A DNA stretch of 64,000 bases from an uncultured Ignavibacteria bacterium (GCA_963811905.1 CAWETK010000011.1:59943-123942); one strand, 5' to 3'. Positions 2,057-63,024 are shown, counted from the stretch's first letter. Notes: generated by a model from the sequence alone, not told the origin. Numbers and translations: made by a program.

Positions 2057-2767
2057 ATGAAGCATAACCACAAAAGCACTGCAGTCTGCCAGATATGTAA
2101 AAAAGAAAAGAAATTGAGTGAATTAATGCCCGGAATATCCGTGCCCAATTCAATAGTAAACCTTATAACCGCACAGAACTACCAGTGGGATCCTGAGGGA
2201 TTTATCTGTCTGGAAGACCTTAATAAATTCAGATCGGAGTTTGTAAAGGGAATTCTTACAGAGGAAAAAGGAACGCTTTCTGAATTTGAAAAGGAAGTGT
2301 TCGATAGTATTGTTGAACGCGATATTCTTTCAAAAGATGTAGATGCGGCGTATGAAACAAAATCCTCCTGGGGAGAAAAATTATCCGATAAAATTGCAAA
2401 GTTTGGCGGGAGTTGGCCCTTTATCATCTTATTTCTTCTCTTTATTCTGATCTGGATGATAATTAACGTGATCATTCTGTCAAGCCGTAGTTTCGATCCC
2501 TATCCCTTCATCCTTTTAAATCTTGTGCTCTCCTGCGTAGCAGCAATACAGGCGCCTGTAATCATGATGAGCCAGAACAGGCAGGAATCAAAGGACAGGG
2601 CTCGTTCTATGCACGACTACCAGATTAATCTGAAGGCTGAAGTGGAAATAAGGAGACTTCATGATAAAATGGATCATTTGCTGAAACAACAGGGAATGCG
2701 GATGCTTGAAATTCAGCAGATACAGATGGAAATGATAGAGGAAATTTCTAAAAATCTAAAAAAATAA
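2057..2767 (+). CDS. DUF1003-family membrane protein
   Basis: Two TM helices are followed by APVIMMSQNRQESKDRARSMHDYQINLKAE, the characteristic DUF1003 core. The N-terminus is Cys-containing. Confidence 0.7.
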   Translation: MKHNHKSTAVCQICKKEKKLSELMPGISVPNSIVNLITAQNYQWDPEGFICLEDLNKFRSEFVKGILTEEKGTLSEFEKEVFDSIVERDILSKDVDAAYETKSSWGEKLSDKIAKFGGSWPFIILFLLFILIWMIINVIILSSRSFDPYPFILLNLVLSCVAAIQAPVIMMSQNRQESKDRARSMHDYQINLKAEVEIRRLHDKMDHLLKQQGMRMLEIQQIQMEMIEEISKNLKK

Positions 2768-3741: not shown

Positions 3742-4692
3742 ATGGCGCAAGATGACTTAATAAAAGAGTTAGGGGAACTTGGTATGGCTACCCGCCTGAA
3801 ACGTCTTGGCGAGAGACTCTCTTCAGATGTTGCCCGTATTTACCGGAGCAGAAAACTTGAATTTGAACCTAAATGGTTTACAACCATGTATGCTTTATAT
3901 AAAAACGGATCTATGAGCGTGCAGGCACTTGCTCAATCACTCGGATTCACGCATCCTGCAATTATCCAGTTTGTAAACCAGATGAAAAAGAGGGACCTGG
4001 TGGAAACAAGACAAGGTGAGGATAAAAGGGTGAATCTTATCTCGCTTACTCAAAAAGGCATAGAGACTTTCGAATCAATAAGACCATTGCTTACCGATAT
4101 CGAGGAGGTGACTTCTGAAGTAATTAATTCTCCGGGACTTGATATGCTCCTGCTGCTCGACAGAATAGAAGAAACCCTCGACCAGAAGAGCATATATGAC
4201 AGAATAAGTGAAAGGATAAAAGATAGAGAGTTAAAGGAGGTCAGGATAGTAAGCTATGAACCAAAATATAAAGACGACTTTAAAAAACTGAATGAAGAAT
4301 GGCTTAAGAAATATTTTTCCATCGAAGCGGAAGATGAAAAGATATTATCTAATCCTGAAGAGATCCGGAAGAACGGAGGAGAAATATTCTTTGCCCTTTA
4401 TAATAATGAAGTGGCAGGAACCTGTGCTGTTATAAAAGCCGGCAAACATTCCTTCGAGCTTGCAAAAATGGGAGTTACAGAAAAATACCAGGGTAAACAG
4501 ATTGGAAAGAAACTGGCGCTGACTGCAATCGGCTTTGCGGTAGCAAAAAATGCAAAAAGCATATTCCTTGAAACCAGCAATAAACTGACATCAGCATTAA
4601 ACCTTTATAAAAAACTGGGATTCGAACAGATCCCTAACGATAATCCCGAAAAATATAAACGCTGTACCATTAAGATGAAACTGGATGTCTGA
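3742..4692 (+). CDS. MarR-type HTH fused to a GNAT N-acetyltransferase
   Basis: The N-terminal half is a winged helix (SVQALAQSLGFTHPAIIQFVNQMKKRDLV). The C-terminal half has a GNAT core (VTEKYQGKQIGKKL...LYKKLGF). The ATG at 3742 is preferred over the TTG at 3730. Confidence 0.75.
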   Translation: MAQDDLIKELGELGMATRLKRLGERLSSDVARIYRSRKLEFEPKWFTTMYALYKNGSMSVQALAQSLGFTHPAIIQFVNQMKKRDLVETRQGEDKRVNLISLTQKGIETFESIRPLLTDIEEVTSEVINSPGLDMLLLLDRIEETLDQKSIYDRISERIKDRELKEVRIVSYEPKYKDDFKKLNEEWLKKYFSIEAEDEKILSNPEEIRKNGGEIFFALYNNEVAGTCAVIKAGKHSFELAKMGVTEKYQGKQIGKKLALTAIGFAVAKNAKSIFLETSNKLTSALNLYKKLGFEQIPNDNPEKYKRCTIKMKLDV

Positions 4693-10339: not shown

Positions 10340-10418
10340 CTTGCATTAAATAAACAATTGAAATTAGAGAATGAATATAAACCTGAAAGAGAAAAGTTTA
10401 AAGGACAAAGATGTCTCA

Positions 10419-10800
10419 TTAACCAATGGCTTCAGCAATTGAACTTCATCTCATTAACCAACCTTCAGCAAATTGAACTTCATCCCATTAACCAACGCTT
10501 CAGCAAATTGAACTTTATCTCATTAACCAACGCTTCAGCAATTGAACTTCATCTCATTAACCAACGCTTCAGCAAATTGAACTTTATCTCAATTAACCAA
10601 CGCTTCAGCAAATTGAACTTTATCTCATTAACCAACGCTTCAGCAAATTGAACTTCATCTCATTAACCAACCTTCAGCAAATTGAACTTCATCCCATTAA
10701 CCAATGCTTCAGCACATCGGACTTCGTCTCATTAACCAATGGCTTCAGCCATTGGATCTCCTATGCATACAGAAAATATACTAAACGGTTTTAACCGTTT
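10419..10800. repeat. Array 1: ~10 head-to-tail copies of a 35-bp unit (TTAACCAACGCTTCAGCAAATTGAACTTYATCYCA). It ends in the perfect hairpin CCAATGGC-TTCA-GCCATTGG (10736-10755), followed by the hairpin AAACGGTT-TT-AACCGTTT (10783-10800).
   Basis: Read directly from the sequence. The units abut with no spacers, and only the last unit is a perfect palindrome. Confidence 0.9.
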
Positions 10801-10853
10801 CAAAAAAATATTATTTTTAATTATAGAATAAATGGAAACTTTAGGAGGTTGCT

Positions 10854-11294
10854 ATGTCAGTTCGCTCATTCACCAAAATTTGGATTCATATGATATGGTC
10901 TACTCATGATCGTGAGAGGTTACTTATTGACAGGAAGCTTCGTAAGGAGATTTCCGAATGGTTGTATAAATATTCTGACGAGAAAAATATTTATATGAAA
11001 ATAAATTATGTAAATCCCGAACACGTTCATGCTTTAATTGATCTGCCCACCAGTTTAACTATAGAAAATACAGCCCAACTCTTCAAAGGCAGCTCGTCTT
11101 GCCAAATCAATAAACTAGTTAATTTTGAGTTTAGATGGGGAAAGGGTTATGGAGCGTTTTCGGTTTCTGAATCCACCATGGACCAGGTCGTAAAGTATAT
11201 TATTAATCAGGAAGAGCATCATCGTAAGAAAACTTTTTCGGAAGAATATGAGGGTTTTTTGAAGAAGTATAATCTGCTGGCGGTAAACGGTTAA
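10854..11294 (+). CDS. IS200-like Y1 (HUH) transposase, REP-associated (RAYT-like), copy 1
   Basis: 146 aa. It has IWIHMIWSTHDRE, the HUH motif HVHALI, and YIINQEEHHRKKTF (catalytic Tyr region). No TnpB partner is present. It is flanked by hairpin repeats, and its stop codon lies inside AACGGTT-AA-AACCGTT (11286-11301). Confidence 0.8.
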   Translation: MSVRSFTKIWIHMIWSTHDRERLLIDRKLRKEISEWLYKYSDEKNIYMKINYVNPEHVHALIDLPTSLTIENTAQLFKGSSSCQINKLVNFEFRWGKGYGAFSVSESTMDQVVKYIINQEEHHRKKTFSEEYEGFLKKYNLLAVNG

Positions 11295-11326
11295 AACCGT
11301 TATGCTTCTCTTACGTATTTCCCGGT

Positions 11327-13097
11327 GGGGCTGTCCAAAAAGTAAGGAATGATAATTGAAAATAATAGAGAATAAACCAAAAAATCAGAGCTAATAAAAT
11401 GAATGATTCTCTATTTAAAAGAAGATGCGCCCGGGGATTCTCAAAAGAGAAAAAGGAAAAAAAAGAGACCAAGCAAGCCAAAGTTTATCGAATACAATCA
11501 GAACCAGGTAATGCTGCTTCCTCCATCGATAGAGGAAATCATACCGGGGCAACATATAGTCCGGACAGTAAATAGGGTAATAGATACAATGGACATAGAA
11601 GCATTGATAAACACATATAAAGGAGGAGGAAGAAGCTCATATGATCCTCTGATGTTATTAAAGGTATTGATATATGCATATGTAATGAGGACATATAGTT
11701 CAAGAAGAATAGCAAAAGCACTAAGAGAAGACATAAACTTTATGTGGATAAGCGGGATGCAGAGACCCGATTTCAGAACAATAAATAATTTCAGGTCAGG
11801 GAGGCTAAAGGGAGTAATAGATCAGGTATTTTCATCGATGGTAATTTTCTTAACAGATAATAAATATATAAAGCTGGAAAACTATTTCGTAGACGGGACA
11901 AAGATAGAGGCAGATGCCAACAGACATAGCCACGTGTGGTCAAAAAATACCCGGAGATATAAAGCAATGACCATAAAGAAAGTAAAAGACCTGCTGAAGG
12001 AAATTGAAAGGATAAACCAGGAAGAAGATAAAAAATATGGAGAAAAAGATCTGGAAGAACTTGGTGAGGATACAGAGATAAACTCAGAGAAAATAGAAGA
12101 GCAGGTTAAAAAATTAAACAAGATTATCAGACAAATAGGAGAAAAGACCAAAGAGAATAAGAAGGATAAAAACATTGGAAAGAAAAACAGAAAGCTAAAG
12201 AGTGCTGTAAATAAGCTGAATAATAAATATCTGCCAAAACTCAGAAAGTATGAAGGACAGGAGAAGATAGAAGGCCCACGAAGCAGCTATTCAAAAACAG
12301 ACAAAGATGCGACATTTATGCGGAATAAGACAAAACAATTACTTCCTGGTTATAATGTAATAATAGGAACAGAAGAACAGATAATAGTAAACTACAGCCT
12401 TCATCAAAAGTCATCTGAGACAGATAAGTTTATCCCTCATATGAATAAATTAAAGAAAACAACAAAAGGGAAGAATCCAGACAAAGTAATAGGAGACGGC
12501 ACATTTGGTTCAGATGAGAACTATAATTTTCTAAGGCGGGAAAAAATAGGAAGTTATCTGAAATATCCTGGTTTTTACCAGGAGGTAACCGGGAAAGCAC
12601 AAAAGAAGCGTTTTGGCAAAATAAACTTTATATACAGGAAAGAAGAGGATAAACTATATTGCCCTGAAGGAAGAGGAATGGATCTTAACCGTGTAGAAGA
12701 ACAGGTAACTGAGAATGGATATAAACAAATAAAGAGAATATATAAGGGAGATTGCAGAGGATGCAAATATATTTCTTTCTGCAGCAAATCACCCGGGGGA
12801 AGAACCGTACAGATTAACCAAAAATTAGAAAAACATAAGCTGCAAGCTAAGAAAAATCTATGCTCGTCAACAGGGATAGAGTTAAGAAAAAAACGAAATG
12901 TGGACGTGGAGACAGTCTTTGGGGATATTAAACAAAACCAAGGGTTCAGGAGATTCAATTTAAGGGGATTAGAAAAAGTGAATGCAGAATTTGGGTTAGT
13001 AGCAATGGCCTACAACATTAAAAAAGTTAAAGCAATGATCAACTGAAAGGTTGATCACTATTTTAATAGATATAATAATTACTTATTAGTCAGCCCC
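11327..13097 (+). mobile_element. IS1182-family insertion sequence (1771 bp)
   Basis: The imperfect terminal inverted repeats are GGGGCTGTCCAAAAAGTAAGGAAT (11327-) and the reverse complement of attacttattagtcagcccc (GGGGCTGACTAATAAGTAAT, ending at 13097). They enclose one transposase ORF. Confidence 0.75.
11403..13046 (+). CDS. IS1182-family DDE transposase
   Basis: 547 aa. The N-terminal GGRSSYDPLMLLKVLIYAYVMRTYSSRRIAKALREDINFMWISGMQRPDFRTINNFR motif belongs to the IS5/IS1182 group, and there is a Cys-rich C-terminal segment. Confidence 0.85.
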   Translation: MILYLKEDAPGDSQKRKRKKKRPSKPKFIEYNQNQVMLLPPSIEEIIPGQHIVRTVNRVIDTMDIEALINTYKGGGRSSYDPLMLLKVLIYAYVMRTYSSRRIAKALREDINFMWISGMQRPDFRTINNFRSGRLKGVIDQVFSSMVIFLTDNKYIKLENYFVDGTKIEADANRHSHVWSKNTRRYKAMTIKKVKDLLKEIERINQEEDKKYGEKDLEELGEDTEINSEKIEEQVKKLNKIIRQIGEKTKENKKDKNIGKKNRKLKSAVNKLNNKYLPKLRKYEGQEKIEGPRSSYSKTDKDATFMRNKTKQLLPGYNVIIGTEEQIIVNYSLHQKSSETDKFIPHMNKLKKTTKGKNPDKVIGDGTFGSDENYNFLRREKIGSYLKYPGFYQEVTGKAQKKRFGKINFIYRKEEDKLYCPEGRGMDLNRVEEQVTENGYKQIKRIYKGDCRGCKYISFCSKSPGGRTVQINQKLEKHKLQAKKNLCSSTGIELRKKRNVDVETVFGDIKQNQGFRRFNLRGLEKVNAEFGLVAMAYNIKKVKAMIN

Positions 13098-13142
13098 TTA
13101 ATGAGAGCTCATAACGGTCCTACGTCTGTTCATCTGCTCTCA

Positions 13143-13535
13143 TCAACCAATCGCTTTAGCTATTAGAATCTATCTCATTAACCAACGCTTCAGCAATTGA
13201 ACTTCATCCCATCAACCAATGCTTCAGCAATTAAACTTTATCTCATCAACCAACGCTTCAGCACATCGGACTTCATCTCATCAACTAATGCTTCAGCACA
13301 TTGAACTTCATCCCATTAACCAATACTTTAGCATATTGAACTTTATCTCATTAACCAATGGCTTTAGCACATTGAACTTTATCTCATTAACCAATGCTTC
13401 AGCATGTTGAACTTTATCTCATTAACCAATGGCTTTAGCCATTGGACTCTATCAAACCCCTCTCCCATTAACCAATGGCTTCAGCCATTGGATTCCCATG
13501 CATACATAAAGTCCACCCCAACGGTTTTAACCGTT
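13143..13535. repeat. Array 2: ~10 copies of the same 35-bp unit as array 1. It ends in the perfect hairpins CCAATGGC-TTTA-GCCATTGG (13426-13445) and CCAATGGC-TTCA-GCCATTGG (13472-13491), followed by AACGGTT-TT-AACCGTT (13520-13535).
   Basis: Read directly from the sequence. It has the same orientation and the same terminal architecture as array 1. Confidence 0.9.
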
Positions 13536-13631
13536 TTTTACATTGCTTTGGAAATAAAAGAAAATTTATTTTAGCAATGCTGAATTTAAAGTGATTAAAA
13601 TATGAAGATTATAGTTTATTTTTACATCCTC

Positions 13632-17030: not shown

Positions 17031-17265
17031 GACAGGTCAGGCACCGCGAAAGATTTAATAATTATCGCGGTTATCGAGTGTTCCGAATGAAGCGAGATTC
17101 GTAAAAATATAGCGAGCGGAATGAGGAACGTATCGAGATATGAAGGCAAGGCCGGGACAGGTCGGGCACGGCGAAAGATTTAATAATTATCGCGGTTATC
17201 GAGTGTTCCGAATGAAGCGAGATTCGTAAAAATATAGCGAGCGGAATGAGGAACGTATCGAGATA
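17031..17265. repeat. Tandem duplication with a 125-bp period and a ~110-bp conserved core
   Basis: gacaggtc[a/g]ggcac[c/g]gcgaaagatttaataattatcgcggttatcgagtgttccgaatgaagcgagattcgtaaaaatatagcgagcggaatgaggaacgtatcgagata occurs at 17031-17140 and 17156-17265. A partial third start (tgaaggcaagggtcgggcaccgc) lies at 17413-17436. Confidence 0.9.
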
Positions 17266-25345: not shown

Positions 25346-25622
25346 CACCTCGATTTATCGAGGTGCGGAAACTTAATTATAAGACAGCCTAACCGTTTTA
25401 ACGGTTTTAACGTTAAACCAGTTATGTAGAACCTTCTGTAAAAGTTAATACCTCTGTGCAGAGGTTAAAAGTTGACTAAAAAATAATTTCCAATTTGGAA
25501 ATCTATGGAAATCGTTTCCATTAGTTTTTTGCTTCGTCTTGATCCATATAGAACATCGTAGATGTTCCAACTATTGTAGATAAAAGCATCCCCGAAAAAT
25601 TGTGGGATCCTTGTAGAGGATC
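25346..25622. repeat. String of seven unrelated short perfect or near-perfect hairpins
   Basis: The hairpins are: 25346-25365 CACCTCGA-TTTA-TCGAGGTG; 25391-25406 AACCGTT-TT-AACGGTT; 25450-25465 ACCTCTG-TG-CAGAGGT; 25487-25501 TTTCCAA-T-TTGGAAA; 25505-25521 ATGGAAA-TCG-TTTCCAT; 25551-25567 GAACATC-GTA-GATGTTC; 25606-25622 GATCCT-TGTAG-AGGATC. Confidence 0.85.
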
Positions 25623-53273: not shown

Positions 53274-54632
53274 CTACTTACCTATACAGAATTTTGTAAA
53301 AATATTGTTTAATATGTCGTCTGAAGTGACAATTCCTATAATTTCTCCAAGATCATCAGCCGCTTTTCTTAAATCCACAGAGATAAATTCTCCACTCATC
53401 CTGTTTTCTACTGATTCTTCAGCATTTTCCAGGGTTTCTTTTGCTTTTCGCAGGCATTCATAATGCCGGGAGTTGGAAACAATTGCACCTTTTTCACTAT
53501 AGGAAGAGGAACCAAGCGCCTTTTCTTTCATCATTAAAAACAAATTTTCAATACCTTCTCCTGAAAGAGCAGAAATAGCAGCATCATAATTTTCTGTGTC
53601 ATTATTCCCTAAATCAATTTTATTCAGGACCTTCAGGATTTTGTTTTCATCAGTAAGTTTTTTGATTTCCTCCAGTAATTCGTCAGATCTCCCTTGTTCT
53701 ACATCGCTGATCAATAGTACTAAATCTGCATCTTTTACTGCCTGTCTGCTGCGAAGAACACCTTCTATTTCAATAACATCTTCAGAGATCCGTATCCCTG
53801 CGGTATCATACAATCTAAAAAGAATTCCGTCAATCGAAACATCTTCTCTGATAATGTCCCTGGTAGTTCCCGGGATATGGCTGACTATAGCGCGCGATTC
53901 CTTCAGTATATAATTCAGCAGGGAAGATTTGCCTACATTCGGCTTTCCAACCAGTGCCGCATTTACGCCGTCTTTAAGTACTTTACCAAATGAATAGCTC
54001 TTTAACAAAGTTTCTATTTCTGTCCTTATTTTCTTAATTCTTTCGCTGAGTTCACCCAGATTCACGAATTCCACATCTTCTTCTGCAAAATCAAGTTCCA
54101 GCTCCACAAAAGAAGAAACATTTATGAGCGAACTCCGGATCTCATCAACTTTTTTGGAAAGCATCCCGTCGAGCTGGTTCCTCGCACCCCTCAGTGAAGC
54201 ATCTGTTCTTGACGATATTACATCAGCTACTGCTTCAGCCTGGGCAAGATCTATCCTGTTATTCAAATAAGCTCTTTTTGTAAATTCTCCCGGTTCAGCC
54301 TGCCTGGCTCCATTCCGAAGAAGGAGTTCTATAATTTGCTTTGATATTAAAGGATTTCCATGAGTGCTTATTTCTACAGAATCCTCTCCGGTATATGAAT
54401 GTGGATCCTTGAATACTGAAATCAATACATCATCAATCAAAACACCTCTTTCATTAACGATCTCACCATAATGAATAGTATGAGATTCCGAATCAGATAA
54501 TCGCTTTTTACCCCGGAATATTTTATCTGATATCTCAAAGGAAAGAGGGCCGCTGACCCGGATGACAGAAATTGCCCCGGCTCCCGAAGGAGTTGCAATT
54601 GCCGTAATTGTGTCTTCGGTATATTTATTCAT
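53274..54632 (-). CDS. mnmE: tRNA modification GTPase MnmE (TrmE)
   Basis: It has TIAAIATP, G1 GKPNVGKSSLLN, DTAGIR, and the C-terminal FCIGK. Confidence 0.95.
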   Translation of the reverse strand: MNKYTEDTITAIATPSGAGAISVIRVSGPLSFEISDKIFRGKKRLSDSESHTIHYGEIVNERGVLIDDVLISVFKDPHSYTGEDSVEISTHGNPLISKQIIELLLRNGARQAEPGEFTKRAYLNNRIDLAQAEAVADVISSRTDASLRGARNQLDGMLSKKVDEIRSSLINVSSFVELELDFAEEDVEFVNLGELSERIKKIRTEIETLLKSYSFGKVLKDGVNAALVGKPNVGKSSLLNYILKESRAIVSHIPGTTRDIIREDVSIDGILFRLYDTAGIRISEDVIEIEGVLRSRQAVKDADLVLLISDVEQGRSDELLEEIKKLTDENKILKVLNKIDLGNNDTENYDAAISALSGEGIENLFLMMKEKALGSSSYSEKGAIVSNSRHYECLRKAKETLENAEESVENRMSGEFISVDLRKAADDLGEIIGIVTSDDILNNIFTKFCIGK

Positions 54633-54871
54633 CTGGTTTAATTAGCAGAAACAAGTCTGCAAAAATATGGAAATAATTGTGCATTAACAATCCAAAGATT
54701 CGACGCTATGCTCAACTCATCCCTTCCTCCCCATCTTTCCGTCTCCCGTCTCCCCGTCACTCAGTCTCCCCATCTCTCAGTCCCTCAGTCTCTCCTGTCT
54801 CTTAGTCTCTCAGTCCCCCCGTCTCTCAATCCCTCCATCTCCGCGTCTCTCAACCTCTCCTTCCACTTTCC

Positions 54872-54923
54872 ACATACGTCTCACATACGTTCCACATACG
54901 TCCTACATACGTCTCATATACGT
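54872..54923 (+). repeat. Five phased copies of an 11-bp unit with core ACATACGT
   Basis: Cores are at 54872, 54883, 54894, 54905 and 54916 (the last is ATATACGT), giving an exact 11-bp spacing. Confidence 0.9.
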
Positions 54924-55113
54924 CCTACCTACCTTCCTCAAACGCTCAAAATATTTAATTGTCCCTCCTTCTCTCAGTCTCTCAATCCCTCCTTCTCTCC
55001 GTCTCTTAGTCACTCAGCCTCCCCGTCTCTCAGTCCCTCGTCTCTTAGTCTCTCCCTTCTCTCCGTCCCTTAGTCACTCAGTCCCCGTCTCTCAACCTCT
55101 CTTTCCACTTTCC

Positions 55114-55165
55114 ACATACGTCTCACATACGTTCCATATAGATCCTACATACGTCTCACATACGT
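55114..55165 (+). repeat. Second array of five phased 11-bp units with core ACATACGT
   Basis: Cores are at 55114, 55125, 55136 (degenerate ATATAGAT), 55147 and 55158. Confidence 0.9.
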
Positions 55166-55565
55166 CTTACCTTCCCTCCTTAAACACTCAAAAAGGGTCA
55201 GCCCCCGCCTTTCCTCAATCTCTCCGTCCCTTAGTCTCCCAATCTCTAAGCCCCTGGGTATCTTCCCCCGTCTCTCCGTCCCTCAGTCTCTCCGTCTCTC
55301 AGTCTCTCAGTCCCCCCGTCTCTAAGTCCCTTAGTCACATAACCCCCCGCCTCACCGTCTATACAAAATTTGTCCGGTTTATTGCCATTTTTATGATTCC
55401 GACTATCATTTTGTATATAAAGTCTGCCATTTTGTCAAACAGTATCCTTTGCAGTTCTATCCTCGTAACTCTTTATGATATATATTGTTATAGGAATTCT
55501 AAGCGGCTGGCATTTTAGTTGTTACAGTGTAAATGACATTAAAAATTATAAAGGAGGAAAAAATT

Positions 55566-56030
55566 ATGGCAATAGTAAGATGGAATCCTTCAAAGGATTT
55601 ATTAAACATTGAACGTGAGTTCAATAGAGTGTTCAATTCTTTTAATAGAAGATTTGGTTTTGGAGATTCTGATGAAGAAGTGGCTGAATATGAAAATGCT
55701 GTATGGTCTCCTCTTACTGATATTACTGAAGATGAGGATGGCTATAAACTGAAGCTTGATCTTCCTGGTGTGAAAAAAGAAGATGTGAAAATAAATTATG
55801 AAAATGGTCAGCTGTCAATAAGCGGAGAAAGAAAACAGGAGACTGAGAAAAAGAATTCAAAATACCACAGGGTTGAAAGATCATACGGCAGGTACTTCAG
55901 ATCTTTTAATCTTCCTTCAAAAATTCAGGAAGATAAAATCGATGCTGAATTTAAGGACGGACAATTAACCATTACCGTTCCTAAATCCGAAGAAGCAAAA
56001 CCAAAACAAATTGAAGTTAAAGTAAAATAA
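55566..56030 (+). CDS. Hsp20/alpha-crystallin small heat-shock protein
   Basis: An AGGAGG RBS precedes ATG 55566 (MAIVRWNP). The alpha-crystallin core reads DITEDEDGYKLKLDLPGVKKEDV...GQLSISGERK...AEFKDGQLTITVPK. Confidence 0.9.
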   Translation: MAIVRWNPSKDLLNIEREFNRVFNSFNRRFGFGDSDEEVAEYENAVWSPLTDITEDEDGYKLKLDLPGVKKEDVKINYENGQLSISGERKQETEKKNSKYHRVERSYGRYFRSFNLPSKIQEDKIDAEFKDGQLTITVPKSEEAKPKQIEVKVK

Positions 56031-61740: not shown

Positions 61741-61871
61741 TTGTGCCCAGGTCTATAGCGATCCTACTTCGATCTAGATCCTTAAATTATTCTTCTACAT
61801 AGTGAAATATATAAATAGCGGTTATCTTCTTTAGAATTTCCGTTGAGCTTTACTTGACCTGCACAGCTCTA

Positions 61872-61938
61872 GCTGACTTGCCACGACTTTTAAAGTCGTG
61901 GGGATAGTAAAACTAAGAAGCTGAGGGCTTTAGCCAAA
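61872..61938. repeat. 66-bp repeat carrying the hairpin CCACGACTT-TTA-AAGTCGTGG; left bracket of RAYT copy 2 (overlaps its stop codon)
   Basis: gctgacttgccacgacttttaaagtcgtggggatagtaaaactaagaagctgagggctttagccaaa. Confidence 0.9.
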
Positions 61939-62370
61939 TTTATTCAGCGATTTAAACCCATATTTTTTAATAAACTCTTCATACTCTTCTGTAAAACTCT
62001 TTTTCCTATGATGTTCTTTCTGGTTCTTTATATAATCTCTTACCCTATTAATCTGCGATTCACTTACAGATACAGCTATATACTCATCCTGCCATTCAAA
62101 ATGACCCTTTGATAAGCCATATTTATTCACCCAATTTGATGATTCTCCCTTTAGCAGCTGGGCTACTTTACTAATATTTTGATCTGAACCCATTGATATT
62201 GTCATATGGATGTGCTCAGGTTCGCAGTTTATAAAATCAATATAGATATTTTTTAATTCTGCATTTTCTCTTATGTGATTCAATAATTTGGATTTAATAT
62301 CTTCAGTAATTATTCGCTCCCTGTTTTTGGTTGACCAGATTAGATGAATCCAGATTCTAATATATGGCAT
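61930..62370 (-). CDS. IS200-like Y1 (HUH) transposase, REP-associated (RAYT-like), copy 2
   Basis: 146 aa. It has IRIWIHLIWSTKNRE, HUH HIHMTI, and YIKNQKEHHRKKSF. By eye it is ~45% identical to copy 1. Confidence 0.8.
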   Translation of the reverse strand: MPYIRIWIHLIWSTKNRERIITEDIKSKLLNHIRENAELKNIYIDFINCEPEHIHMTISMGSDQNISKVAQLLKGESSNWVNKYGLSKGHFEWQDEYIAVSVSESQINRVRDYIKNQKEHHRKKSFTEEYEEFIKKYGFKSLNKFG

Positions 62371-62496
62371 AAACTTGTTTCCTTATATTAAGATGAATTG
62401 TAAAGGGTTTTAATTGAAATGCCCGTTTTTGTGTGAAACAACAGCAAACTTGCTCTGAACTTAAATTCAACTTTGGCTGACTTGCCACAAGCTTTG

Positions 62497-62562
62497 GCTG
62501 ACTTGCCACGACTTTTAAGTCGTGGGGATAGTAAAACTAAGAGGCTGAGGGCTTTAGCCAAA
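62497..62562. repeat. Right bracket of RAYT copy 2: a direct copy of the 66-bp hairpin repeat, preceded by 21-bp degenerate tandem units
   Basis: gctgacttgccacgacttttaagtcgtggggatagtaaaactaagaggctgagggctttagccaaa has one loop indel and one substitution relative to the left copy. Upstream are the units caactttggctgacttgccaca and agctttggctgacttgccacg. Confidence 0.9.
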
Positions 62563-63024
62563 GAATAAACCTATTGATTCAGACCACGACATCAGCCTTC
62601 TGCATATTCAGCTATATTAATCTTATTCATTTTATTAAGATTTTGCGGCAAGCTTTAGCCAAACTTTAGGCAATCCTTAACTGACCCGCACAGCTTTGGA
62701 TTTCTATAAAAAATAAAATCCCGACTTTAGCCAAATTTAATTAAGATTTCCTTTTGATTCTATATTTGGTTAAAGCCATCCTCTCATTTTTAATATCCAC
62801 CACGACTTAAAAAGTTGTGGCATCAATCTTCTCAATTCGGACAAATTAATTCAGCCCCGATATTGGTTTCTTCCTAATTTACCCTTAATTCCGGAGTATT
62901 TATGCCGCCCAAGTTTACTACTATTATCATGAATTAATATTAAATTTGAGGCTGGTCTGGAATAGTTTTTGAAACTATTCTCCTGTTATGCTGTTTAATA
63001 CATTAGATATAATTTGGTTTTAAT

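Follow-up and report, generated by a model that had tools for sequence, protein, structure and literature searches.

We analysed a 64,000-nt stretch of an Ignavibacteria genome (the window, in which all positions are counted unless another locus is named) where a gene for a Y1 (HUH) transposase-like protein is accompanied by two arrays of a 35-bp hairpin repeat. The explanation that we favour, with slightly better than even confidence, is that this locus is a system resembling those of repetitive extragenic palindromes (REPs) and REP-associated tyrosine transposases (RAYTs), built on a class 1 Y1 enzyme from the sister group of IS200, and that its arrays grow mainly by slippage or unequal exchange. 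The textbook example of a transposase that has been domesticated and has its own population of non-autonomous repeats is provided by REP/RAYT systems, which until now have been linked to the class 2 Y1 clade and investigated for the most part in Proteobacteria.

Structure of the repeat arrays

Searching the window with Tandem Repeats Finder, we found a 35-bp period at 10414-10749 (9.6 copies, 91% matches) and again at 13138-13453 (9.1 copies, 83% matches). Cut at the conserved tag TCATTAA, each array resolves into 10 units of 34-36 bp that lie on the + strand throughout and abut without spacers, in agreement with an earlier reading of this DNA made from the sequence alone (the sequence-only reading), which had described two spacer-less arrays of about 10 units in the same orientation. 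Array 1 (10414..10755, + strand) consists of head-to-tail units, each carrying the tag, a 20-nt hairpin or a degenerate form of it and a tail of ~8 nt; array 2 (13138..13491, + strand), at 83% matches, is the more heterogeneous of the two. The perfect palindrome, HP1 (CCAATGGC-TTYA-GCCATTGG), is present at 10736-10755, 13426-13445 and 13472-13491. In array 1 the sole folding unit is the last one (hairpin 10736-10755, dG -7.3). That each array ends in a perfect palindrome, as had been proposed, holds for both, except that array 2 ends in two of them: its unit 9, 46 bp long, comprises the tag, the perfect hairpin 13426-13445 and part of the linker described below, and its terminal unit 10 carries the perfect hairpin 13472-13491. 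With DNA folding parameters, these three units fold at dG -7.3 to -7.7 and every other array unit folds weaker than -3.3. The HP1 palindrome with up to 3 mismatches matched the window 8 times, compared with 0.00 matches expected from shuffles, and the tag TCATTAACCAA with up to 1 mismatch matched 20 times compared with 2.4 expected; 17 of these 20 lie inside the two arrays, and the remaining 3 are one-mismatch matches elsewhere in the window at chance level.

The sequence-only reading had further proposed that the units decay progressively with distance from the terminal hairpin. This applies weakly to array 2 (rho -0.63, p 0.049 for sequence; rho -0.86, p 0.0014 for folding energy), whereas array 1 is step-like and shows no gradient of deficit with unit index (Spearman rho -0.18, p 0.62). 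Units 2-8 of array 1 are 94% identical to one another and 73.5% identical to the terminal unit, and they have in common a set of derived changes, namely a G missing from the left arm and one or two additional A residues in the right arm; the outermost unit 1 resembles the perfect unit more closely (83%) than do the inner units. Given that the shared derived indels break the stem, the inner units must have been copied from each other once the stem had gone, and are not live-hairpin copies that decayed independently. Array 1 also shows higher-order periods of 69-106 bp. Units 1-8 of array 2 are 83% identical among themselves. Within units, changes cluster in the mid-stem, and conservation is good in the tag and in the loop-proximal GCTTCAGC. 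Comparison of the two arrays revealed a positional match only in the last two units and the module that follows them (0.92-0.94 identity), while no such match exists for the inner units (diagonal 0.85 versus off-diagonal 0.82). An origin of the arrays as collinear block duplicates was rejected, since only the last two units and the module correspond.

Both arrays are intergenic and lie next to gene starts; array 1 is bordered by lysC and Y1, which are transcribed divergently. The window's 20 units are direct repeats without exception, and none forms an inverted REP doublet (REPIN); tail-to-tail inverted pairs are present in the relatives L001 and L102. GC skew over the 64 kb is noisy and gives no assignment of the lagging-strand template. 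Several other explanations of the repeats were ruled out: an assembly artefact, because a second independent assembly (L244) carries both arrays; coding repeats, because 35 bp is not a multiple of 3 and the open reading frames (ORFs) across the arrays are frame-hopping artefacts; a CRISPR array, because the units abut without spacers; and plasmid iterons, because there is no replicon context. Rfam gave no match at the locus at a permissive threshold, or in the whole window.

The arrayed unit is part of a bipartite module conserved in relatives

A second palindrome after each array, and a third copy at the stop codon of the transposase gene, had been noted from the sequence, and both are borne out. 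This palindrome, HP2 (AACGGTTTTAACCGTT), reads AACGGTT-TT-AACCGTT and lies at 10784-10799 and 13520-13535, each time 28 nt past the terminal hairpin, and the third copy, which is inverted (11286-11301), overlaps the TAA stop codon of the Y1 ORF; HP2 matches in the window number 7 compared with 0.03 expected. With the terminal unit of array 1, the 28-nt linker and HP2 (10756..10799, + strand) complete a forward module, and this region scores terminator-like on the minus strand. The corresponding 28-nt linker and HP2 behind array 2, followed by a T run (13492..13535, + strand), score terminator-like on the + strand and stand just before a gene at 13602. Downstream of the Y1 gene, the inverted HP2 (11286-11301) and then an inverted linker form the remnant of an inverted module (11285..11326, minus strand), in which HP1 is missing exactly at the position of an insertion sequence (IS) described below; a 34-nt inverted repeat pairs 10767-10800 with 11285-11318. 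Elsewhere in the window (25390-25412), a palindrome AACCGTTTTAACGGTT with arms swapped relative to HP2 is found inside a short TAACGGTTT repeat; the same AACCGTTTTAACGGTT is the compensated variant used as HP2 upstream of the Y1 gene in L060.

Gene flanks were readable at about 10 relative loci (L001-L006, L102, L245, L246, L247 and L252). Upstream of the gene, these loci carry TCATTAACC, a 20-nt hairpin, a variable linker of 24-30 nt and AACGGTT-NN-AACCGTT, and the more distant L253 and L254 follow the same plan with another tag and another stem. An alignment of 20 module sites from 9 loci, in both orientations, identifies the HP2 at the stop codon as that of an inverted module downstream of the gene, and in L001, L102 and L245 the gene has full inverted modules on its flanks. 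Since the stop-codon HP2 belongs to an inverted module, the ancestral layout as judged from the alignment is module -> gene <- module, which is the classical RAYT arrangement. Modules of HP1, linker and HP2 in the same orientation on both sides of the gene are also present, in the window and in L001/L102.

The stem of HP1 covaries. Among 17 distinct hairpin variants, which had been pre-selected for pairing, two-sided changes affect 5 of 8 pairs, and no variation occurs in the tag, the stem base or the loop. A check free of this bias showed that 34 of 46 exact tags in 17 relative loci directly precede a hairpin of dG <= -4. The exact 27-nt tag and HP1 of the window also occur in genomes whose Y1 proteins are only 68-69% identical; the unit is thus found in relatives as well as at this locus. 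Some HP1 loops hold a nested hairpin of ~20 nt (L001 5857-5896 and 6707-6746; L102 2835, minus strand), as in CCAATGGCT-[TCCCCGAAAGGGTCCTATGGAC]-AGCCATTGG, which suggests that one small palindromic element inserts into another.

The enzyme carries the signature of TnpA-Y1 subclass 1.2

The Y1 gene (10854..11294, + strand) is intact, encodes 146 amino acids and has an AGGAGG ribosome-binding site upstream. Its product matches Pfam Y1_Tnp (69.9 bits, E = 2.7e-19) and, at the borderline, the NCBIfam IS200/IS605 model NF033573 (55.3, cut-off 55). The nearest solved structures by sequence are the TnpA proteins of ISDra2, Sulfolobus IS200 and IS608 (17-27 bits), and E. coli TnpA-REP gave no sequence match to the protein at E <= 1. 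An AlphaFold model (predicted local distance difference test, pLDDT, 82) matches 29 IS200/IS605 TnpA chains ahead of TnpA-REP 4er8, which ranks 30th; the fold matches to TnpA chains have probability 1.00. TnpA-REP gave the lowest root-mean-square deviation in this fold search, which we did not use as evidence of a monomeric RAYT-like mechanism because a single-chain model always puts the catalytic helix in cis.

Alignment of the protein with 11 homologues showed that H57, H59, Y115, N118, Q119, H122 and H123 are invariant, as are F128, E131, Y132 and F135 towards the C-terminus. The tyrosine motif reads YIINQEEHH here and YIKNQKEHH in a second paralogue of the window, likewise of 146 amino acids; both are of the Y---Q--HH type, and the motif of the first protein is not the IS200 type Y[IV]ENQ. 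TnpA-Y1 subclass 1.2, as defined by Quentin et al. (2018), is characterised by Y---Q--HH with the consensus YIKNQKEHH, a length of ~148 amino acids, a specific C-terminal domain, low copy number and occurrence in Cyanobacteria and Bacteroidetes, and it forms a non-IS sister group of IS200 TnpA (PMC6006769). The protein of the window shares with this subclass the length, the motif, the C-terminal segment, the low copy number, the non-IS behaviour and a host from the Bacteroidetes-related FCB group, and the second paralogue has the published consensus exactly. From these sequence features, we place the Y1 protein in subclass 1.2, outside the proteobacterial RAYT clade and apart from ordinary mobile IS200 TnpA. 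In the literature that we searched, no later paper dealt with subclass 1.2.

Homologues of the protein number ~1,900, and the few with a named source come from Ignavibacteria, Melioribacteraceae or Bacteroidetes metagenome-assembled genomes (MAGs). In the window and the loci fetched, there was no identical second copy of the Y1 gene, identical Y1 proteins recurred only at the same locus across samples, and the genes of P0003, P0008 and P0009 all lie between the same two neighbours, indicating a single-copy gene that is fixed at its locus and vertically inherited. Members of the family occupy different loci in different genera. L001 contains, within 6 kb of its intact gene, two truncated Y1_Tnp ORFs (125-421 and 3832-4158; 98 and 108 amino acids, ~60% identical to the query), which are probably decaying paralogues.

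One array varies between strains and arrays recur in relatives

A second assembly of the same species, L244, has the same locus with the same IS, and its flanks are 98.6-99.2% identical to the window. Array 2 together with its module (399 nt) shows no differences between L244 and the window and the Y1 gene differs by 3 nt, while array 1 differs by at least three whole-unit events: in L244 the order of units is altered, some inner units are absent, and a 46-bp penultimate unit that is lost in the window is kept. The unstable array is therefore the homogeneous one, which fits homology-dependent slippage or unequal exchange.

In a sister species (L025, ~87-89% identity), both outer junctions are preserved at the orthologous locus, which retains unit 1 with the tag of a second unit, a truncated IS1182-like end and only the last ~20 nt of the Y1 gene, together with a single degenerate hairpin-linker-HP2. 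No arrays are present on this 2.7-kb short-read contig; a relative in which the gene is lost from the orthologous locus thus shows none. Judged from these sequence remnants, occupation of the site predates the split from a relative of ~88% identity.

Arrays and other tandem repeats recur near the gene in other members of the family. L252 carries an array of six units of 34-35 bp (TCATTAACC + CCAAAGGATTTATCCTTTGG) with a different stem, in which most hairpins are intact and one unit has a compensated stem change; this array is located in another intergenic region, 1.7 kb away from the gene. Also at this locus, directly upstream of the gene, is a 104-bp tandem array with four REPs. Beside the gene, tandem repeats have a period of 42 bp (2.7 copies) in L253, of 207 bp (2.6 copies) in L254 and of 111 bp (at least 2 copies) in L245. 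Such amplifications parallel the tandem REPIN clusters next to RAYT genes in Pseudomonas fluorescens (PMC3116915).

Modules are dispersed in related genomes

Among the matches listed, modules dispersed in unrelated flanks occur in at least four related MAGs, at L014 682, L051 3622 and 5046 (minus strand), L101 3979 (minus strand), L113 4728 (minus strand) and L045 3945; the modules occur singly, on several contigs, and the 8-kb chunk around them contains no Y1 gene. The dispersed elements are ~170-220 nt long, and their homology begins sharply at the tag within flanks that are mostly unrelated. In them a second hairpin element, GCTGACTTGCC-ACGAGCT-TCA-GCTCGTGG ... GGCTTTAGCCA, is joined to the module, and this is the element flanking the second Y1 paralogue of the window. 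The dispersed elements thus look like mosaics of the type of bacterial interspersed mosaic elements (BIMEs), made from the cognate repeats of two paralogues.

The second paralogue (61930-62370, minus strand, 146 amino acids) is 43% identical to the first and has its own hairpin. It is bracketed by 75-nt direct repeats at 61865-61938 and 62490-62562, which are 93-96% identical and each hold the hairpin CCACGACTT-TT(A)-AAGTCGTGG; further repeat fragments lie at 62640-62740 and 62800-62822. In a unit-pattern scan of genome contigs and a two-unit scan of metagenomes, the matches listed were mostly chance or unrelated satellites, and a complete scan of viral contigs for tag pairs spaced as in the arrays yielded 37 stretches, all of them without hairpins.

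An IS1182-family element interrupts the downstream inverted module

The two arrays had been described as bracketing the Y1 gene. The bracketing is not direct on the downstream side, where an IS1182-family insertion sequence of 1.77 kb (11327..13097, + strand) sits between the gene and array 2. Its transposase ORF (11403-13046, 547 amino acids) scores 401 bits against the NCBIfam IS1182 model, and its terminal inverted repeats of 19 nt lie at 11327-11345 and 13079-13097. The element does not belong to the Y1/REP system and entered the inverted module at a later time. As read from the sequence, the right end of the IS appears to adjoin an inverted tag TTAATGAGAG (13098-13107), followed within 13098..13137 by a putative, very degenerate forward unit, CTCATAAC...TTCATCTGC ('unit 0').

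Ends of IS1182-family elements abut the repeat tag at the boundary behind TCTCATTAA in three independent places: the full IS of the window, with TTAATGAGAG next to its right end; in the sister species, an IS-like end that is truncated (L025, about 2615-2630, minus strand); and an IS1182-derived miniature inverted-repeat transposable element of ~85 bp in L245 (1535-1640) with TTAATGAGA on both sides. It looks as if the IS1182-family element targets the tag/hairpin junction. REPs are targets of the insertion sequences IS1397 and ISPpu9/10.

Origin of the arrays

In the explanation that we favour, the locus would be the home site of a domesticated, single-copy subclass 1.2 Y1 enzyme together with its cognate REP-like DNA, and the cognate element would be a bipartite module made up of the tag TCATTAA, the 20-nt HP1 with its covarying stem, a linker of 24-30 nt and HP2. 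The tag-HP1 part of the forward modules would have been duplicated head to tail in this lineage, after which homology-driven replication slippage or unequal exchange would have been the main process behind growth and turnover of the arrays. A variant lacking the mid-stem would thereby have been homogenised in the array interior, while the module-proximal perfect unit or units, the presumed site of the enzyme, stayed perfect; later, an IS1182-family element targeting the tag/hairpin junction would have landed in the downstream inverted module. By analogy with the TnpA proteins of IS608 and ISDra2 and with E. coli TnpA-REP, the Y1 protein may bind and cleave single-stranded tag and HP1, and the perfect module-proximal hairpins are probably kept by selection as its site. 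HP2 may act as a terminator or insulator. We infer that slippage and not the enzyme drives array turnover. Slippage or unequal exchange is favoured because array 1 is step-like and centrally homogenised with edge units that look more ancestral, because its higher-order periods span 69-106 bp, because polymorphism between strains is restricted to the homogeneous array, and because tandem periods vary among relatives (42, 104, 111 and 207 bp). Of the one-sided copying or slippage that had been suggested from the sequence, slippage is thus supported by the whole-unit differences between strains, but copying from the terminal hairpin fits array 1 poorly.

A number of observations weigh against this explanation. 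The name RAYT-like, given to the protein in the sequence-only reading, agrees with a single-copy gene at a fixed locus, with its inverted cognate hairpins and with dispersal in relatives, but the protein itself stands outside the RAYT clade and scores 27.6 bits against NCBIfam REP_Tyr_transpos NF047646, below the cut-off of 80. The tag with its hairpin was found nowhere in the 64-kb window outside the two arrays, and dispersed copies may be few or absent in the source genome, in contrast to classical REP systems. Subclass 1.2 was described as in general devoid of terminal secondary structures of the IS200 type, with 'no' given in the table under associated structures (PMC6006769), whereas conserved covarying hairpins are present here; this mismatch is a difference from the published description, and we do not count it against membership of the subclass. 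The L025 contig ends 60 nt from the first unit, and its repeats may have been collapsed or broken in assembly. Finally, a minimal period of 34-35 bp has arisen twice, the second time at an unrelated site in L252, which hints at a unit defined by the enzyme.

An enzyme-defined unit is the core of an account in which the Y1 protein excises or copies the 34-35 nt of tag, hairpin and tail and re-inserts them directly 3' of an existing copy. The arrays would then be primarily products of the transposase, tandem copies of a 'peel-and-paste' minimal single-strand element, and slippage would only reshuffle them afterwards. We regard this as rather unlikely. It would explain why unit boundaries coincide with a complete functional unit of tag and hairpin without spacer, and the single orientation of all units at the locus is what strand-specific single-strand insertion predicts; the independent six-unit array of 34-35 bp in L252, at a non-homologous site, with another stem and with mostly intact hairpins, and the weak gradient of array 2 toward its module-proximal end also speak for it, and the position of the arrays beside the gene is consistent with cis preference. 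Inner units that share stem-destroying indels, however, must have been copied from each other and not from a live hairpin, and the outermost unit of array 1, the oldest because its junction is common to the sister species, is less degenerate than the inner units. Moreover, the tandem units of other family members measure 42-207 bp and include arbitrary flanking DNA, and the array that varies between strains is the homogeneous one, as homology-dependent slippage predicts. A more far-reaching version, which we consider unlikely, is that subclass 1.2 represents a second, independent IS200-like domestication whose enzyme pastes the 34-35-nt tag and hairpin 3' of an existing copy, that its repeats spread chiefly as local arrays in one orientation and not as dispersed inverted doublets, and that the stem-less inner units are inactivated copies, tolerated or selected because live hairpins in tandem are harmful.

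The remaining alternatives concern what the locus is. Were it a selected host function, the tag or array would serve as a reiterated protein-binding site, insulator or promoter, acting between the divergent lysC and Y1 genes and before the downstream gene, with the stem-less units as the functional form. The retention of the tag and of loop-proximal GCTTCAGC with changes in the mid-stem, the identity of array 2 in two strains, the placing of arrays in two intergenic regions next to gene starts and the terminator-like score of HP2 would all suit such a role. Recent duplication, however, accounts for conservation within the arrays, strains differ freely in array 1, the sister-species locus is without array, Rfam contains no known RNA for it, a 35-bp period does not hold one helix face, and no candidate binding protein is known; we judge this improbable. 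Even less probable, in our view, is that the locus is a mobile element of IS200 type, with the forward hairpins as the one-strand subterminal hairpins of its left and right ends and the arrays as expansions inside these ends. No identical second copy was found (the window's paralogue shares 43% identity and carries another hairpin), identical proteins from different samples always occupy one locus, and the site was already occupied before the split from the ~88%-identical relative; so far the trend is one copy per paralogue, without empty/occupied-site polymorphism. Instead of Y[IV]ENQ, the protein has the tyrosine motif of subclass 1.2, a group that lacks IS properties; inverted modules form the nearest flanks of the gene; and the module also occurs dispersed on its own. 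These points stand against a just-reached cut-off in the NCBIfam IS200/IS605 model (55.3 versus 55), the closeness in sequence and fold to ISDra2 and IS608 TnpA, the same-orientation HP1-linker-HP2 modules on both sides of the gene in the window and L001/L102, and the different loci of family members in different genera.

Relation to known systems

Tandem REPIN clusters lie beside each RAYT gene in Pseudomonas fluorescens SBW25 (PMC3116915), BIME arrays are a known REP arrangement in E. coli (PMC2817692, PMC3333891), and head-tail (HT) REP dimers as well as tandemly reiterated single REPs, such as the GTAG-1 arrays of Thauera, have been reported (PMC3733652). A tandem array as such is therefore not a new kind of object, and the suggestion that the organisation is foreign to REP/RAYT systems has to be narrowed, since tandem clusters and head-to-tail single REPs were already described (PMC3116915, PMC3733652). 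What appears to be new is the link of subclass 1.2 to a cognate repeat that is bipartite and covaries, and the presence on both sides of the gene of spacer-less single-unit arrays in one orientation whose interior is mostly stem-less.

The locus resembles REP/RAYT systems in its single-copy chromosomal Y1/HUH gene with inverted cognate palindromes on both sides, in a conserved 5' tag followed by a hairpin, in dispersed copies (here in relatives), in ordered tandem clusters by the gene and in the targeting of the repeat by an unrelated IS. It differs in that the RAYT protein is of class 2 and the protein here of the IS200-sister class 1, that the tag is TCATTAA and not GTAG or CGTC, and that the repeat is bipartite (HP1, linker, HP2). 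The arrays, too, consist here of a single REP in one orientation without spacers, whereas those of REP/RAYT systems consist of inverted doublets with flanking DNA or of alternating REPs. Classical REPs are abundant, with >100 copies per genome (PMC2817692), whereas no dispersed copy was found in 60 kb of genome here. The Thauera GTAG-1 arrays are similar in being head-to-tail reiterations of single stem-loop repeats in intergenic DNA; the tag and Y1 class are other ones here, the arrays stand on both sides of the Y1 gene and most units are stem-less. With IS200/IS605 elements (IS608, ISDra2) the locus shares the closest structures, one-strand subterminal hairpins and an upstream hairpin that is a possible terminator, as in IS200; in contrast to them, it has no multiple identical copies, another Y motif, an extra C-terminal segment, inverted flanking modules and a hairpin module that is dispersed on its own. 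From subclass 1.2 as published it departs by its conserved covarying flanking hairpins and by their dispersed and arrayed copies.

A class 1 enzyme of subclass 1.2 in Ignavibacteria thus shows the hallmarks of a REP/RAYT system, in a subclass that was published without an associated repeat. If this is true, the system could be an evolutionary intermediate between IS200 and RAYTs or a case of convergent domestication, and it would offer biochemistry a very small substrate of 27 nt (tag and hairpin). The arrays are also a natural experiment that can tell repeat growth by the enzyme from growth by slippage: perfect and stem-less units stand side by side and, in strains whose flanks are 99% identical, one array is stable and the other polymorphic.

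Other repeats in the window

Two further repeat regions were observed. An intergenic region of ~600 bp (54727-55336), between an mnmE-like GTPase gene (53274-54632, minus strand) and an Hsp20-like gene (55533-56030), holds degenerate C/T-rich tandem repeats of 8, 16 and 24 bp (CCGTCTCTCAGTCTCC) together with 11-bp repeats (CCACATACGTC). At 17031-17265, within a non-coding region of ~700 nt without an Rfam match, a 125-bp unit is tandemly duplicated with 98% identity.

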